Shown here piece after piece: positions 5,571 to 47,560 of a stretch of 64,000 nucleotides of DNA (positions are counted from its first letter, which is position 1; the number at the start of each line of letters is the position of its first letter). Both the position numbers and the translations under genes were made by a program. The DNA comes from an uncultured Acidobacteriota bacterium. Its GTDB lineage: Bacteria > Acidobacteriota > Blastocatellia > RBC074. Under the pieces are notes generated by a model. The model was not told where the DNA came from. It saw only the letters and a program-made list of their open reading frames with translations, and did no database searches. The DNA is taken from NCBI GenBank assembly GCA_963794955.1, contig CAWCGF010000003.1:195915-259914 (forward strand). The letters run 5' to 3'.

Positions 5571-7367
5571 TCAACTCGCCGCCAATTCTTCTTCCAATAA
5601 CTGCCGTTCATACAGCTCAGCGTATTCGCCCTCCAGCCGCATTAATTCTTCGTGCGTGCCGCGCTCGACAATATGTCCGTGATCGAGCACGCAAATCAAA
5701 TCAGCGTCTTTCACGGTGGAAATGCGATGCGCGACGATGAGCGAGGTGCGGCCTTGCATCACGCCGCGCAGTTCGGACAGTATCTTTTCTTCGGTGTAGG
5801 TGTCTACGGCAGAAAGCGCATCGTCTAAGATCAGGATTTTCGGTTCGCGCATGATCGCACGGGCGATAGCCGTGCGCTGCTTTTGTCCGCCGGAAAGCGT
5901 AATGCCGCGCTCGCCGACGAGCGTTTCATATTGCTTGGGAAAGGCATTGATGTCTTCGGCTAAACCGGCAATAGCGGCAGCGCGGGTGATTTGTGGAAGT
6001 TCTGCTTGCGCTACTCCGAACGCGATATTTTCGGCGAGTGTTTCGCTGAATAAAAACGTTTCCTGTGTGACATAGCCGACGCTCGCGCGTAAGCTTTGCA
6101 GCGGAATTTCCCGTATCGGCTGTCCGTCAATCAACACCATGCCCGGTGCCGCGTCGAGCAAGCGCGGCACCAAATTCATTAGCGTAGATTTGCCCGAACC
6201 CGTGCGCCCAATGAACGCGACAGTCTGCCCCGGTTCAATCACTAAATTGATGTTGCGCAATACTTCCGGTGTGCTTTCAGCATATTTAAAAGTAAGATTG
6301 CGAAACTCGATTTTGCCTCTCAACTGGCTCTTTCGCTCTTTCGCTCTTTCGCTCCGCCCCTCATTTTCTTCATCGCGGATCGCTGGTTCTACCCGCATAA
6401 TTTCGTGCATCCGTTTCAAACTTGCCGTGCCACGTTGCACCAGATTGGTCACATAGCCCATCGCAATCAGCGGCCAGATCAATTGCTCCAGATACAAATT
6501 GAAGGCGGCAAATTGGCCGAGCGTCATGTTGCCCAGCGCGGTTTCCCGTCCGCCGTACCACAGAATCGCAGCGAAGCCGAGGCCAATCAGAAACTGCATC
6601 AGCGGGCGAAAGACGGCGGACAGCTTCACTAAATCCAAATTGCGATCCACATATTGCTGATTCAGCTTGTCGAAGTTTTTGATTTCGGCTTGCTCTTGCG
6701 CATATGCACGAATGACGCGAACGCCGTTCAGGTTTTCCTGCGCGCGTGCGGAAATGTCAGAGAAAAATTCCTGAATTTTTTCAAAGCGGACGTGGATTTG
6801 TTGCCCGAACCATTTCACGGTCAACGAGACAAGCGGCATCGTAATCAGCAAAATCAACGTCAGCTTCCAACTGATCGCGAACATAATTGGAATCACGATC
6901 AGGCAGCGAAACAACGTTTGTTCACCATACATAATCGCGGGGCCGACGATTTGGCGTACGGCTCCGAGGTCATTGGTCGCGCGTGCCATCAAATCTCCGG
7001 TGCGATTGTCCTGATAAAATTGCAGTGGCAGCTTTTGCAGATGCGCATAGAAATCGTTGCGCAGGTCGTATTCGATAAAACGCGACATGTTGATGAGCGT
7101 GCGCCGCTGGAAGTAGAGAAAGATACCGCTGATGAAACTTGCGGCGATAATCAAAAGCGCGTGCCGCATGATAATTTCGTAGGTCACGCCGCTGCTTTTT
7201 AAATCATCAATTGCCTGCCCGACTTGATTGGGGACGAAGACGCTGAAAGCGGTCGAGCACAGCACAAACAAAGTGCCTGCGAGCAAGCGCCCGATGTATT
7301 TCTTTTGATAGCTCAGCAACCACGCGTTGCCGGTTAGGTGTTTTGTATTGCTCATAACTTTAGCCAC
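5571..7367 (-). CDS. ABC transporter, fused permease/ATP-binding protein (MsbA/multidrug-exporter type)
   Basis: 598 aa. Six-helix TMD, then Walker [10 protein letters not shown], signature LSGGQKQR, Walker [13 protein letters not shown]. Confidence 0.85.
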
Positions 7368-7454
7368 TGATTACACAGATTTTCACAGACTAGGAAAGAA
7401 AACTAGCCTCTACCAAGAGCAAAATGAATCTGTGTAATCGGTGGCTGAAAAAAA

Positions 7455-7898
7455 TTATTTCTCTTTCAGCGATTTGGCCACCAAGCCAATGCCGCCGACC
7501 AATAGAATCAGCATCGTCAGCGTATTGAATAAATTCGTTGTAGCAAAGTACACGTTCAGGCTGGAAATGATGCCAACGAAAATGATGATGACACCCGCAA
7601 ACGTCAACAGCCAGCCAATCTTTGATTTACCGCTGAAAAACAGCATCCCAACGCCGATCAACAAGGGGAACAACGACATGCCGAATCCGTTATAGCCCCA
7701 GACAGTCCAATAGCCTGTCGAGACGTTCACGTTGCGCATGAATAAATACCCGCCCGCAATCGCCATTGCCAGCCCCGCGAGGAAAGTGCCAATGCCGCCG
7801 GATGTGCCTCCTGCACCGCGCTTCTTTGATTGGAGCTGGTCATCAAACATGCTTTGATACGTTTCGTAATCCTGTTTTTCGCGTTCTTTGAATGGCAT
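7455..7898 (-). CDS. hypothetical membrane protein
   Basis: 147 aa, with a Gly-rich segment and three or four hydrophobic helices. No family recognised. Confidence 0.45.
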   Translation of the reverse strand: MPFKEREKQDYETYQSMFDDQLQSKKRGAGGTSGGIGTFLAGLAMAIAGGYLFMRNVNVSTGYWTVWGYNGFGMSLFPLLIGVGMLFFSGKSKIGWLLTFAGVIIIFVGIISSLNVYFATTNLFNTLTMLILLVGGIGLVAKSLKEK

Positions 7899-15631: not shown

Positions 15632-16468
15632 ATGAGCTATGCCTTTCGCATTACCGGTAAGAAGAAAATCAAACTCAAGAATTTCGATCCTGACTACGAC
15701 GCTGGGCTGACGCGCGCAGAGGTTGAAGCCAAAACGGCGGCGCTCTGCGACGAACTGCAGAAGCTGCAAGAGTTGCTGTATGCCGCCGGAGATCACAGCG
15801 TGCTCATCGTTTTGCAGGGCCGTGACACCAGCGGGAAAGACGGCACGATTCGCGTGGTGATGGGGCCGCTCAACTCGCTCGGTTGTAACGTCGCTTCCTT
15901 CAAAGTCCCGACCGCACACGAACAGGCGCACGATTTCTTATGGCGTGTACACAAAGAAACGCCGGGCCAGGGCGAAATCACGATCTTCAACCGCTCGCAT
16001 TACGAAGACGTGCTGGTGGTGCGCGTCCATCATCTGATGCCAAAGAAGGTTTGGAAACCTCGTTACGAGCACATCAATCATTTCGAGCGGCTGTTAGTTG
16101 ATGCCAACACCATTGTCCTGAAGTTTTACTTGCACATCAGCCAGGCCGAACAGGAGGAACGCTTGCTCGAACGAGAAAAAGATAAGACCAAAGCATGGAA
16201 GCTATCGGTCGGCGACTGGAAAGAACGCGAATTTTGGGACGATTATACGGCGGCGTATGAGGACGCGATCAACCGATGCAGCGCCAAACATGCGCCCTGG
16301 CATATCGTACCCGCGAACAAAAAATGGTTCCGTAACCTGGCGGTGGCGGAGGCTATCGTTGCCGCGCTCAAACCGTATAAGCAAGCGTGGCTGAAAAAGC
16401 TGGAAGCCATGGGCATAGCAGAGAAATCCTTAATTGAAGAATATCGGCGTAGCAAACACCTGGCTTAG
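15632..16468 (+). CDS. polyphosphate kinase 2 (PPK2) family phosphotransferase
   Basis: Walker A-like [11 protein letters not shown] and PPK2 lid region. ATG lies 3 nt after the upstream stop. Confidence 0.8.
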
Positions 16469-16729
16469 GAAGAAACTATACTTCGGCGTGATTTGCCCGT
16501 CGGAGTTTTTCGGGCCTGGCGAGCGGAAACTTCCTCAAATCTCTCGCCTCCCAAAGAACGCCGTGGTGCGATTAAAGCGAAACATTCCCCCTCTTTGCCA
16601 ACAAAACGTACTATCGTGGCAAGGCCCACAAATTGCTTTGCCTGAACACCGCTTCGTCGTTGCAGGGGAGGAACTGCCCGACAAGGCCGTCGTATTATGG
16701 CTTTTAAGATAAAGAATTGCCGCAGAAAG

Positions 16730-16920
16730 TCCCGGAGGGACGACCAGACATTAGCCCCGGATGCAATCCGGGGAACCCAGGCCAATCGCCCCACAAGCCC
16801 CGGCAGGGGCGACCGACGCCGCTTTTCTGGCGGGCGTCGGTCGCCCCTGCCGGGGCTGGGGAACTTGGCTGAACATCCCCAGGGTTGCACCCTGGGCTAA
16901 TGTCTGCTCACCCCTCCGGG
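16730..16920. repeat. nested palindromic element: an outer long-range inverted repeat enclosing three internal hairpins
   Basis: Outer arms CCCGGAGGG..CAGACATTAGCC (16731-16756) and GGCTAATGTCTG..CCCTCCGGG (16896-16920). Inner hairpins at 16756-16774, 16796-16857 (24-bp perfect stem) and 16877-16897. Confidence 0.7.
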
Positions 16921-17059
16921 GTTCCGATCGGAAAATCATTTTCTTGACCGCATAGTTGAGTTGTAGTGCCTGGAATCTGCTCTGTACAATCGCGCTTGTG
17001 GCACTGTTGGAAACGGACTTGCAGGAGTTGATTGTCAGTTGCAAAGAGAGGAGAAATCT

Positions 17060-17974
17060 ATGGATGATCTAAATTGGCCGCGCGCCAGTGCCTGGTTAGC
17101 CGGTGAACACATCGAAAATACCCTGGGCAAAGTTACTGTCATTGGTGCGCCTCTGCGACTTGGCTCAATCACGCCGGGCCGCTGTGATTTAGCACCAGAA
17201 GCGGGGCGCTCAATTCTGCATAAACTCAGTTGCTATGATCTTGAGTCGGACGCTGATTTACAGCAACTCGAAGCGCATGATCTCGGCGATTTGAATTTGG
17301 CGGGAGTGAAGTTGGAAGACGCGCTTATCCCGCTTTCGCAGGCAGTCAGAACCGCGCTCGAAACTTCTGAAGCGGTGCTGCTGCTGGGCGGCGACAATGG
17401 CGTCACGCGTCCCGGCGTGCATGGCGTTTCCAGCTTGCTCGATAATTGTGGGCTGCTGACCTTCGACGCGCATCTTGATTTGCGTGACACCAGCCACGGG
17501 TTGACGAATGGAAACCCCGTCCGCGCCTTGCTCGAAGACGGCTTACTTGGTAAGAACATTGTCCAAATCGGGCTGCAAGGTTTCGCCAATTCGCACGTCT
17601 ACGCACAGGTTGCGCGTGAGGCCGGGATCACCGTTGTAACGATGAACCAGATTCGCGCGCGTGGCATTGAGGCGGTTGTAACAGATGCGTTGACTTACTT
17701 GTCGCAACGGGTCGAAATGATTTACGTGGATTTTGATATTGACGTGCTGGATCGTATCTTTGCTCCTGCCTGTCCCGGCTCGCGTCCCGGTGGGTTAACG
17801 CCGTGGGAATTGCGTCGCGCCGCGTTTTTGTGTGGGCAGCACCCACAAGTGCGCGCGATGGATATCGTCGAAGTTGATCCGACGCAGGATATTGCAGAAG
17901 TGACCGTGTTGGTGATGGGCGCATGCTTGTTGTCGTTTGCGGCTGGCGTGGTCAATCGTTTGAAAAAAATCTGA
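17060..17974 (+). CDS. hutG: formimidoylglutamase / arginase-family hydrolase
   Basis: GAGGAG RBS. Arginase-fold metal-ligand motifs [15 protein letters not shown] and DFDIDVLD. Immediately upstream of hutI. Confidence 0.7.
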
Positions 17975-46694: not shown

Positions 46695-46712
46695 AGACCA
46701 GTGAGGAACGCT

Positions 46713-47474
46713 ATGAAAACCAAAATGATCAATTGTCTTGTCATTGCTGTTTTGCTGACGGCGAATTTTTCCGCCTCCTCAGCGCAAGGCAAAAGCAAAA
46801 GTAAGCAGGAAGGGATGCGCGCGCGCGCTATGTTCGTCGGCAAAAAAGCCGACGGGCTGGAAGTGAAGTTGACAAACGAAAAAGGCGAGTTGATTGATCC
46901 CGGCAAATCGTTCAGGGGGGGCGAGCGCATTCGCGTCAGCTTCGAGAGCAATTTCAAAGGCTTTGTCTATTTTATCAACGTCACCCCCGGCGGTGTCACC
47001 AAGGTAATTTACAGTAGCGAAATTGAGGCCGATCAATCGTACGATTTGCCGAGCAAGCCCTACGCCATCGAATTTGACAAAGAGCCAGGCACCGAAATTC
47101 TGAAAGTGGTGCTTTCGTATGAGCGCATCAAGCCGTATGAGGAAGCACTGAAGAGCGCGGAGGGCGAATTAGGCAAATCTGCTTCCAGCGTCGCGGACGA
47201 GTTGGCCGACAATAATCCCAAGGCAGGGGGCAAGAAAGGTAGTGGCAAACCTCCCGGCGAAGCGGTTGGTATCGTCACTTCAAGTAACGCCTGCGGACGT
47301 GAACGCGGCTTGGTCTTAGCGTCCGGGCAGGAAGCGCGTTGCCGCAGCCTCGTCCTCGCGTCCGGCAATCAAGCCAAGAACGAAGGCTCCGTCGTGGCGA
47401 TTTCCGATAAGCAAGGCACGAAATTGCAAACCGGCGAAGTGGCCGTGTTCGAGCTACGCCTGAAACACCTGTGA
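46713..47474 (+). CDS. secreted protein with a DUF4384-like domain (paralogous fold to 45915-46694)
   Basis: GAGG RBS then ATG at 46713. Signal peptide. IRVSFESNFKGFVYFINVTPGG motif. Confidence 0.5.
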   Translation: MKTKMINCLVIAVLLTANFSASSAQGKSKSKQEGMRARAMFVGKKADGLEVKLTNEKGELIDPGKSFRGGERIRVSFESNFKGFVYFINVTPGGVTKVIYSSEIEADQSYDLPSKPYAIEFDKEPGTEILKVVLSYERIKPYEEALKSAEGELGKSASSVADELADNNPKAGGKKGSGKPPGEAVGIVTSSNACGRERGLVLASGQEARCRSLVLASGNQAKNEGSVVAISDKQGTKLQTGEVAVFELRLKHL

Positions 47475-47560
47475 GGGGAGAAGGGGAGAAGGGAGATAAG
47501 ATTCCTCTTCTCCTCTTCTCCCTTTCTCCCCCCTCTCCCTCTCCTTCTTTATAATTCACA
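47463..47560. repeat. polypurine tract followed by its complementary polypyrimidine tract (imperfect long hairpin / mirror repeat)
   Basis: GAGGGGAGAAGGGGAGAAGGGAG...CTCTTCTCCTCTTCTCCCTTTCTCCCCCCTCTCCCTCTCC, immediately after the stop at 47474. Confidence 0.6.

Follow-up and report, generated by a model that had tools for sequence, protein, structure and literature searches.

A nested palindrome upstream of hutG in an uncultured Acidobacteriota bacterium: a likely non-autonomous mobile DNA repeat built from inverted Acido-Lenti-1 motifs

Among described systems, the REPtron is one of the closest to the element reported here. It couples repetitive extragenic palindromic (REP) sequences, and their paired form, the REPIN, to a REP-associated tyrosine transposase (RAYT) (Nunvar 2010; Bertels & Rainey 2011; Ton-Hoang 2012; reviewed in PMC6006769 and PMC3733652). 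Our element is a nested palindrome that lies upstream of a hutG-like gene in a 64-kb stretch of contig CAWCGF010000003.1, from an uncultured Acidobacteriota bacterium (the window, i.e. the whole stretch of DNA that was analysed). The family to which it belongs shares with REPtrons extragenic hairpin repeats, present singly, in clusters or as inverted doublets that can fold into one long hairpin, and a Y1 HUH transposase gene flanked by inverted repeats; the head at the hairpin foot (NTAG here) resembles the GT[AG]G head of REPs, and bare doublets show no target duplication, as in REPs. It differs in that the enzyme is not a RAYT by sequence, and in that its repeat unit, with 46 nt and two hairpins, exceeds theirs in size, a third hairpin being present at each end of full units. 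As a small non-autonomous repeat with a REPtron-like organisation, the element is nothing unusual in kind, and we consider it likely to be a non-autonomous, non-coding mobile DNA repeat made of two nested layers. An initial annotation had offered, next to an RNA, a mobile palindromic unit resembling a miniature inverted-repeat transposable element (MITE) or a bacterial interspersed mosaic element of REPs (REP-BIME). This suggestion is supported, and can be made much more specific, by a Y1-type doublet lying within a shell of terminal inverted repeats (TIRs) and TA flanks, with siblings in other genomes.

Three further groups of elements share part of this layout. IS200/IS605 insertion sequences (IS; TnpA structures IS608 2A6M and ISDra2 2XM3), including their gene-less derivatives (palindrome-associated transposable elements, PATEs, and MITEs), resemble it in their subterminal hairpins, in the lack of target duplication at bare units and in the sharp bounds at the outer hairpin, seen here in three of four pairs of units; Pfam, NCBIfam and the nearest solved structures all place the partner protein in this family. 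Canonical IS200/IS605 ends, in contrast, are not inverted and carry their hairpins on the same strand, whereas here we find long inverted repeats, with a motif copy on the minus strand at the left, M(-), and one on the plus strand at the right, M(+). ERIC, Correia/NEMIS, RUP/BOX and IS982-family MITEs are likewise intergenic and ~130-270 bp long, end in inverted repeats, are flanked by duplications of TA or of a short AT-rich sequence and can fold into one long hairpin; they differ in that the core here is a cross-phylum module tied to a Y1 transposase. Finally, the TIRtrons of Acidobacteria (Di Nocera et al. 2013, PMC3733652) comprise Y1 genes (TIRYTs) flanked by long, sometimes double-palindromic inverted repeats, which are also dispersed as singles, dimers and groups. 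TIRYT proteins (e.g. aba 1552, '..VVMPDHVH..WQKGFS') are RAYT-like, whereas those found here read 'GGVxDHVHLL..FAWQEGYGAFSVS..YIxNQxxHH'; on protein sequence, we therefore rejected that the two groups are the same.

Anatomy and building block of the palindrome

The terminal arms had been described as exact reverse complements, and this is what we found: CCCGGAGGG-n5-CAGACATTAGCC at 16731-16756 (+) has its exact complement at 16895-16920, with a chance expectation of 0 matches. The inverted repeat is in fact longer than had been claimed, with arms at 16706-16773 and 16878-16945 that are 74% complementary. The perfect central hairpin is there too but measures 25 bp instead of 24, and the two small hairpins, reported as 6 and 7 bp, have 8 bp each (16755-16762/16766-16773 and 16878-16885/16889-16896). 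On either strand, 16700-16950 folds into one long hairpin (-168 and -173 kcal/mol) that is far more stable than those of shuffled sequence (z = -13.3 and -13.1; 0 of 200 shuffles as stable). The observation itself is thus confirmed.

Both outer arms are copies of a published motif, Acido-Lenti-1 (Rfam RF01687), which is likewise found in Acidobacteria and the Planctomycetes-Verrucomicrobia-Chlamydiae (PVC) group and was rated a probable RNA (Weinberg et al. 2010, PMC2864571). In a local permissive scan, M(-), read from 16773 to 16728, matched the model over its full length (positions 1-46) with 35.2 bits (E = 3e-6), and M(+), read from 16878 to 16923, did so with 34.4 bits (E = 5e-6), i.e. 2-3 bits under the RF01687 gathering score. 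The features of the family are present in both copies: an 8-bp hairpin (hairpin 1, hp1), a linker of ~12 nt with GGCUA (GGCUAAU-type) and a 5-bp hairpin (hp2). The subtype of the window has hp1 CCCCGGAUGCAAUCCGGGG and linker GGCUAAUGUCUG. A covariance model, R1, made from 38 published seed sequences and the two window copies, scored M(-) at 46.7 bits and M(+) at 46.6 bits, its alignment including both. The Rfam unit differs from ours in being a stand-alone 46-nt small RNA (sRNA), whereas here it is one arm of a ~196-nt palindrome and, at the level of the family, the inverted flank of a Y1 transposase gene. Published seed coordinates of RF01687 already hold inverted pairs ~93-106 nt apart as well as tandem arrays, and dozens of the motif copies in the Rfam seed come from Lentisphaera araneosa contigs. 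A link between Acido-Lenti-1 and IS200-like transposases was not found in the literature searched.

Between M(-) and M(+), three stem positions of hp1 and two of hp2 have changed. Each change is compensated within its own arm and not between the arms, so it is the local hairpins that are conserved and on which selection acts. The outer complementarity, which the initial annotation had interpreted as the 'closing helix P1' of a multi-stem RNA, thus simply follows from a single 46-nt motif being present twice in inverted orientation. The central hairpin is itself made of two inverted modules, each an inner hp2 with a half-linker, and each of its arms has a small hairpin of its own, GCCCC-GGCA-GGGGC. 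Coordinates of all parts are collected in Table 1.

Table 1. Features of the element and its surroundings, in window positions (a dot marks a feature given without strand)
Feature	Position	Strand	Evidence
TA dinucleotide outside left shell end	16696..16697	.	TA outside TAG...CTA in five well-preserved siblings
Left terminal inverted repeat TGGCTTTTAAGATAAAGAATTGCCG; family consensus TAGTTTTTAAGAAAAAGAATTTCCG	16698..16722	+	Alignment with six Blastocatellia copies from metagenome-assembled genomes
Acido-Lenti-1 copy M(-): hp2 GUCCC/GGGAC, linker GGCUAAUGUCUG, hp1 CCCCGGAU/AUCCGGGG	16728..16773	-	Rfam RF01687
22-nt spacer, outer motif to inner hp2 module	16774..16795	.	~22 nt also in transposase-bearing units and other doublets
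Central perfect 25-bp hairpin, 16796-16820 / 16833-16857, 12-nt loop 16821-16832	16796..16857	.	
20-nt spacer	16858..16877	.	
Acido-Lenti-1 copy M(+): hp1 CCCAGGGU/ACCCUGGG, linker GGCUAAUGUCUG, hp2 ACCCC/GGGGU	16878..16923	+	Rfam RF01687
Right terminal inverted repeat CGGAAAATCATTTTCTTGACCGCA	16929..16952	-	Alignment with siblings; similarity to relatives begins just outside
TA dinucleotide outside right shell end	16953..16954	.	Sibling copies and homology to relatives
DHODB-type Fe-S/NAD-binding oxidoreductase remnant, last 32 codons	16538-16630	-	tblastn, 40% identity to C-terminus of L073 gene 309-1172

Recurrence of the doublet and its transposase partner

A DNA pattern scan of one genome per species gave 71 loci, from Acidobacteriota, Verrucomicrobiota, Planctomycetota, Victivallales, Ignavibacteria, Eremiobacterota and others; the same pattern gave nothing in viral contigs. 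R1 found 80 strong matches in 46 sources (45 pattern loci and the window); of the adjacent pairs among these matches, 27 are divergent (-,+), 5 direct and none convergent. The divergent gap measures 87-105 nt in 22 of the 27 pairs, and 104 nt in the window. At least 27 places, spread over Acidobacteriota, Verrucomicrobiota, Planctomycetota and Eremiobacterota, have the same layout of motif(-), ~22 nt, central hairpin, ~22 nt and motif(+). Its interior is also kept across phyla: a spacer of ~22-25 nt leads to a long hairpin of two inverted 'hp2 + half-linker' modules (AGCCCCGGAGGGGCGACAT ... ATGTCGCCCCTCCGGGGCT), followed by a like spacer, and the 25-bp hairpin of the window is such an inner pair. 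Doublets are located in gaps free of open reading frames (ORFs) in 22 of 29 cases; where genes are called on both sides (n=24), 9 lie between convergent and 11 between tandem genes. A narrow pattern search found at least ten doublets in a metagenome-assembled genome (MAG) of Pyrinomonadaceae, and the window holds one copy in 64 kb. Outside Blastocatellia, doublets showed neither a TIR extension nor a flanking duplication.

The protein families encoded next to the motif are heterogeneous: a Pfam scan of the 131 ORFs nearest to motif copies returned 142 families, each in three ORFs at most. One of those that reach three is PF01797 (Y1_Tnp), which is usually rare, and tblastn revealed a fourth copy. 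Each of these four tnpA genes (~150 aa; from Acidobacteriota, Planctomycetota and Verrucomicrobiota) has M(-) to its left and M(+) to its right. As an independent test, we took metagenome loci chosen by homology to the four TnpA proteins alone, keeping the best 80 of 589 relatives, and the motif model gave 204 matches in their 202 kb. At least 150 nt are available on both sides of the gene in 69 of the 80 loci. Both M(-) upstream and M(+) downstream were present within 200 nt in 54 of these 69 (median distances of 53.5 and 52.5 nt), and at least one flanking motif in 66.

The architecture of the 17 units that we inspected is M(-), ~22 nt, AGTCCCGGAGGGACG.., tnpA, ..CGTCCCTCCGGGACT, ~22 nt and M(+). 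Inner modules stand on both sides of tnpA in 16 of them, the AGTCCCGGAGGGACG-type directly before the start codon and its complement directly after the stop, and the 12-nt loop of the window occupies the place that tnpA has in full units. Four pairs of related units with 80-90% identity were also aligned with each other. For three of them the match is confined to the span from the outer end of M(-), or at most ~65 nt beyond it, to the outer end of M(+), and the unit is therefore discrete; the fourth pair also has a common downstream gene, suggesting an orthologous site. Just outside M(+) of one Planctomycetota unit we noticed a tandem 18-nt repeat, gcggcggcgttctcaagc, in at least four copies (L035:650-720).

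Proteins of these parent units match PF01797 with E = 1e-23 to 1e-27 and pass the NF033573 transpos_IS200 equivalog model (69-72 bits, cutoff 55). The solved structures nearest to them are the ISDra2, IS608 and Sulfolobus TnpAs, and no TnpA-REP chain is among their PDB matches. Residues H55-x-H57, Y115, Q119, H122 and H123 are invariant in our alignment (A4), and F128, E131, G140 and Y143 are conserved in the C-terminal part. By the Y---Q--HH signature and this conserved C-terminus, the proteins appear to fit TnpA-Y1 subclass 1.2, which is defined by that Y motif with a specific C-terminal domain and is described as being without IS-like ends (Quentin et al. 2018, PMC6006769). Class 3 of the same scheme (NHVH, W[TA], YV..EQ) was rejected on protein motifs. 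The clade is very large, with at least 7,932 proteins at E <= 1e-20 when the search was limited to 8,000 candidates; they are named IS200/IS605 family transposases by NCBI and, for some, RayT by IMG; most of its protein clusters are found on one or two contigs.

The head of the motif gives an indication of how it may be read. On the complementary strand hp1 is preceded by NTAG (TTAG 37, ATAG 36, GTAG 18 and AAAG 9 of 106, a set not selected by DNA pattern), with AG invariant, T in 88% and GTAG in 17%; in REPs, a GTAG head is read by E. coli TnpA-REP (PMC6006769). Because the motif forms inverted flanks around a Y1 gene, occurs as singlets, doublets and tandem arrays, is extragenic, and has no TIR or duplication outside Blastocatellia, we infer that its hairpins are recognised in single-stranded DNA. 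The inner layer of the window element (16728-16923), a palindromic doublet of M(-), 22 nt, the inner hp2 pair, 20 nt and M(+), looks like a gene-less (REPIN/MITE/PATE-like) derivative of an IS200-related Y1 (HUH) unit, in which the 12-nt loop has replaced tnpA; given the shared layout, loss of tnpA is the simplest reading of how the doublet arose. Its hairpins would form on single-stranded DNA, e.g. the lagging-strand template. A Y1 transposase provided in trans would bind them, reading hp1 together with the ..TAG head at its foot on the complementary strand, and would presumably mobilise the doublet in single-stranded form. IS608/ISDra2 TnpA and E. coli TnpA-REP recognise hairpins in that way.

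Direct tandem arrays of 2-4 motif copies were also observed (L046:4642-4901, L007:359-472 and L013:1790-1987). Spacers are ~20 nt in the first two (period ~67 nt), wider and less regular in the third, and copies that differ in stem sequence still keep their pairing. The doublet model leaves these arrays unexplained; they may resemble REP clusters. As regards a CRISPR-like or type III antitoxin-like reading, no associated genes are enriched, and the repeats vary in sequence yet keep pairing. An attC/integron reading was rejected: relative to each other, the conserved heptamers are oriented the wrong way, and cassettes are absent.

The outer shell and the weighing of explanations

The doublet of the window is enclosed in a shell of 255 bp (16698-16952) that has terminal inverted repeats of 25 and 24 nt and is flanked by TA at either end. 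It can be aligned, from TAGTTTTTAAGAAAAAGAATTTCCG to CGGAAAATCATTTTCTTGATTTCTA, with six siblings from two Blastocatellia MAGs; identity is 74-78% over ~250 bp for five of these and 69% for a degenerate one (L014). In the five well-preserved siblings (L005, L015, L016, L032 and L061), TAG...CTA is bordered directly by TA on the left and on the right. In three relatives, the similarity of the hutG-locus DNA begins at 16954-16956, which confirms the right boundary. The shell has terminal inverted repeats, a small size, several copies and no ORF with a Pfam match, as MITEs do, and by analogy it is probably a DDE-type MITE; among the loci retrieved, a partner IS for this TA-flanked shell (TIR TAGTTTTTAAGAAAAAG) was not found. 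As the outer layer, it carries the Blastocatellia doublet inside its 25-nt TIRs and TA flanks, and the family probably spread as that unit.

A second shell is found in the Pyrinomonadaceae MAG, where nine copies of ~265 bp have the TIR ACGTGAGTTCGA and variable AT-rich target duplications of 6-7 bp, e.g. TATTTA, TAGATTA and TTCTTA. One locus holds a complete IS982-family IS (L066:6346-7341; 291-aa transposase, NF033520 250 bits) adjoining a MITE copy with the same TIR (7347-7603), and the Pyrinomonadaceae doublet is clearly carried in an IS982-derived MITE. A centre-deleted variant (L044:5074-5221) keeps this TIR and has a 7-bp duplication, TATCTTA. Some peculiarities of these loci deserve mention. 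At L066, the hexamer TAAATA is present on either outer side and once more where IS and MITE meet, three times in all, which looks as though both had used a common target; at L044, two motif copies overlap through one common, perfectly palindromic hp1; and in L034 and L054 the left arm of the MITE has an extra 26-nt hp2 module, AGCCCCGGAGGGGCGAGATGTTAGTT, tandemly duplicated beside the outer motif.

The same palindromic module is thus nested inside two different MITE shells. From here we put forward a broader proposal, which we hold tentatively, as quite possible but short of probable: Acido-Lenti-1 would not be an sRNA but the DNA recognition element of a second, independently arisen REP/REPIN-type system, whose doublets have repeatedly become the core of unrelated DDE-type MITEs. 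In such a system, an IS200-related Y1 transposase of subclass 1.2, so far an orphan for which DNA ends are not known, would maintain two-hairpin repeats and palindromic doublets in Acidobacteriota, Planctomycetota, Verrucomicrobiota, Lentisphaerota and Eremiobacterota. The MITE cores would belong to IS982 in one lineage and to the TA-flanked shell in that of the window, so that one repeat would be served by two transposition chemistries. If true, a 16-year-old orphan Rfam "sRNA" family would be reassigned to mobile DNA, which matters for annotation, as Rfam-based pipelines label such repeats as sRNA genes. The very large IS200-like Y1 clade would gain a DNA partner, and REP/REPIN-like biology would extend to soil phyla (Acidobacteriota, PVC group) in which it is little described.

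A number of observations weigh against our reading of the window element as a mobile repeat served by a Y1 enzyme. No Y1 transposase gene is present in the 64-kb window. The check proposed with the initial annotation, a search for copies of the 24-bp stem and the terminal repeats, revealed no second copy there, and neither the arms, the central stem nor the shell TIR recur in it; the partner enzyme in the source organism is therefore unproven. At Rfam gathering thresholds the window has no match (35.2 and 34.4 against 37 bits), and the transposases, while passing the IS200 equivalog model, reach just 20-22 bits on that for RAYTs (NF047646 REP_Tyr_transpos), where the cutoff is 80. Since IS200/IS605 ends lie on one strand and are here inverted, the transposition chemistry of that family is not simply transferable. 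No empty site for the window family was found among the hutG relatives, which have a different upstream neighbour wherever upstream sequence was available, and the TA pair would be a target-site duplication by inference from the siblings. At 74-78% identity to those siblings, the window copy may be a fossil. Lastly, a palindrome of this size would fold in RNA too.

Part of this would suit a pure DDE-transposon MITE, in which only the TIR/TA shell matters and the inner palindrome is inert cargo, or a hairpin joining the TIRs, with no present link to Y1. The window family is kept as a whole 255-bp unit including its TIRs, the target duplications of the Pyrinomonadaceae family are genuine and its partner is an IS982, and the lack of a Y1 gene in the window is as this explanation would have it. 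Against it, the same inner doublet is found in two shells with unrelated TIRs, doublets outside Blastocatellia have no shell, and the inner hairpins keep compensatory changes between arms and across phyla, which together suggest that the inner module is kept for its own sake. We regard this explanation as rather unlikely; it overlaps with the one that we prefer and differs from it only on whether the inner layer is still active. A host-domesticated, REP/BIME-like structure, acting as a transcription barrier, an mRNA-stabilising hairpin or a site for nucleoid proteins or gyrase, appears improbable. Roles of this kind are documented for REPs (PMC3733652), the element lies between two co-oriented genes, and the numbers of doublets between convergent and tandem genes would agree with them; yet the same region of relatives is without the element and the main hairpin lacks a following T-run, on which ground an intrinsic terminator was rejected. 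The lone terminator-like match on the plus strand is a weak 5-bp stem at the right edge of the element (16915-16932), and the count of such matches is as in shuffles.

The mobile DNA repeat that we favour has also to be set against a structured non-coding RNA, either an sRNA acting in trans, as in the Rfam class, or a cis-regulatory leader or riboswitch for hutG, with the hairpins as RNA helices. An argument for RNA, besides the rating of Acido-Lenti-1 as a probable RNA, the stability of the whole stretch when folded and its position ~105 nt upstream of hutG, is the very strong covariation in both hairpins: 98.7% of cells are paired with 134 double-sided changes in a first data set, and 98.5% with 236 in a second, values reached by 0 of 500 shuffles in either case, while slid controls have just 25-56% of cells paired. 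The kind of pairs tells a different story. Stems are ~98% Watson-Crick, and G:T is no commoner than A:C, with a ratio of 9/6 among 920 pair cells and of 4/16 among the 1364 of the second set (alignment A5); in a subset of the published RF01687 seed there are 7 G:U and 17 A:C. This is not what typical structured RNAs look like: with the annotated strand as the RNA, G:U pairs ought to be accepted but A:C pairs not. Near-pure Watson-Crick stems with no excess of G:U therefore argue for a function in DNA and not in RNA; they suit a palindrome whose pairing is maintained in both strands of the DNA. If the pattern points to one strand at all, it is to the complementary one, and a single functional strand may thus be the complement of that annotated in Rfam. 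Moreover, the copies are inverted doublets, tandem arrays and pairs flanking a transposase gene, their neighbour genes are unrelated and in all orientations, and the hutG relatives at 79-89% identity are without the element. No sigma-70-like promoter was found in 16400-17100, and the main hairpin is not followed by a terminator. The riboswitch or sRNA of the initial annotation is thus disfavoured, and we judge an RNA to be very unlikely.

The locus upstream of hutG

The PPK2 gene ends at 16468 and the co-oriented arginase-family, hutG-like gene (formiminoglutamase in IMG names) starts at 17060. The element does lie between them, as had been reported, in a gap of 591 bp and not 570. Homologues of hutG carry the taxon labels Blastocatellia and Acidobacteria. 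We compared four relatives, with hutG identities of 89, 86, 82 and 79%: their upstream spacer is just 60-95 bp and, where upstream sequence was available, hutG is directly preceded by a divergent three-gene block of Fer4_22, cyclic-nucleotide (cNMP)-binding and DHODB-type oxidoreductase genes. Of this block (L073:309-2919 in the comparison), only the 32-codon remnant of the third gene is kept (Table 1), the remainder being missing from the whole window. The element is therefore located at the junction of a ~2.5-kb deletion or rearrangement. The adjacent 2.5-kb deletion may have been caused by the window copy of the element; the remnant itself is context, outside the element. We saw no evidence that the element regulates hutG; rather, it marks a rearrangement junction upstream of histidine-utilisation genes. 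ORFs called across the palindrome had been dismissed as artefacts. None of them has a Pfam match, in agreement with this, but the 141-aa ORF on the minus strand includes the real gene remnant.

Between the remnant and the element there is a weak match to the Rfam narK RNA (16623-16693; 23.3 bits, gathering score 43.2), most likely due to chance. Elsewhere in the window, a long purine/pyrimidine hairpin (GGGGAGAAGGGGAGAAGGGAGA ... TCTCCTCTTCTCCCTTTCTCCCC, 47472-47535) starts from the stop codon of the ORF 46701-47474, has a T-rich stretch after it and is possibly a terminator. This hairpin accounts for spurious matches to Rfam microRNA families, which, like that to narK RNA, were obtained at permissive thresholds and rejected as chance matches to GC-rich hairpin sequence.

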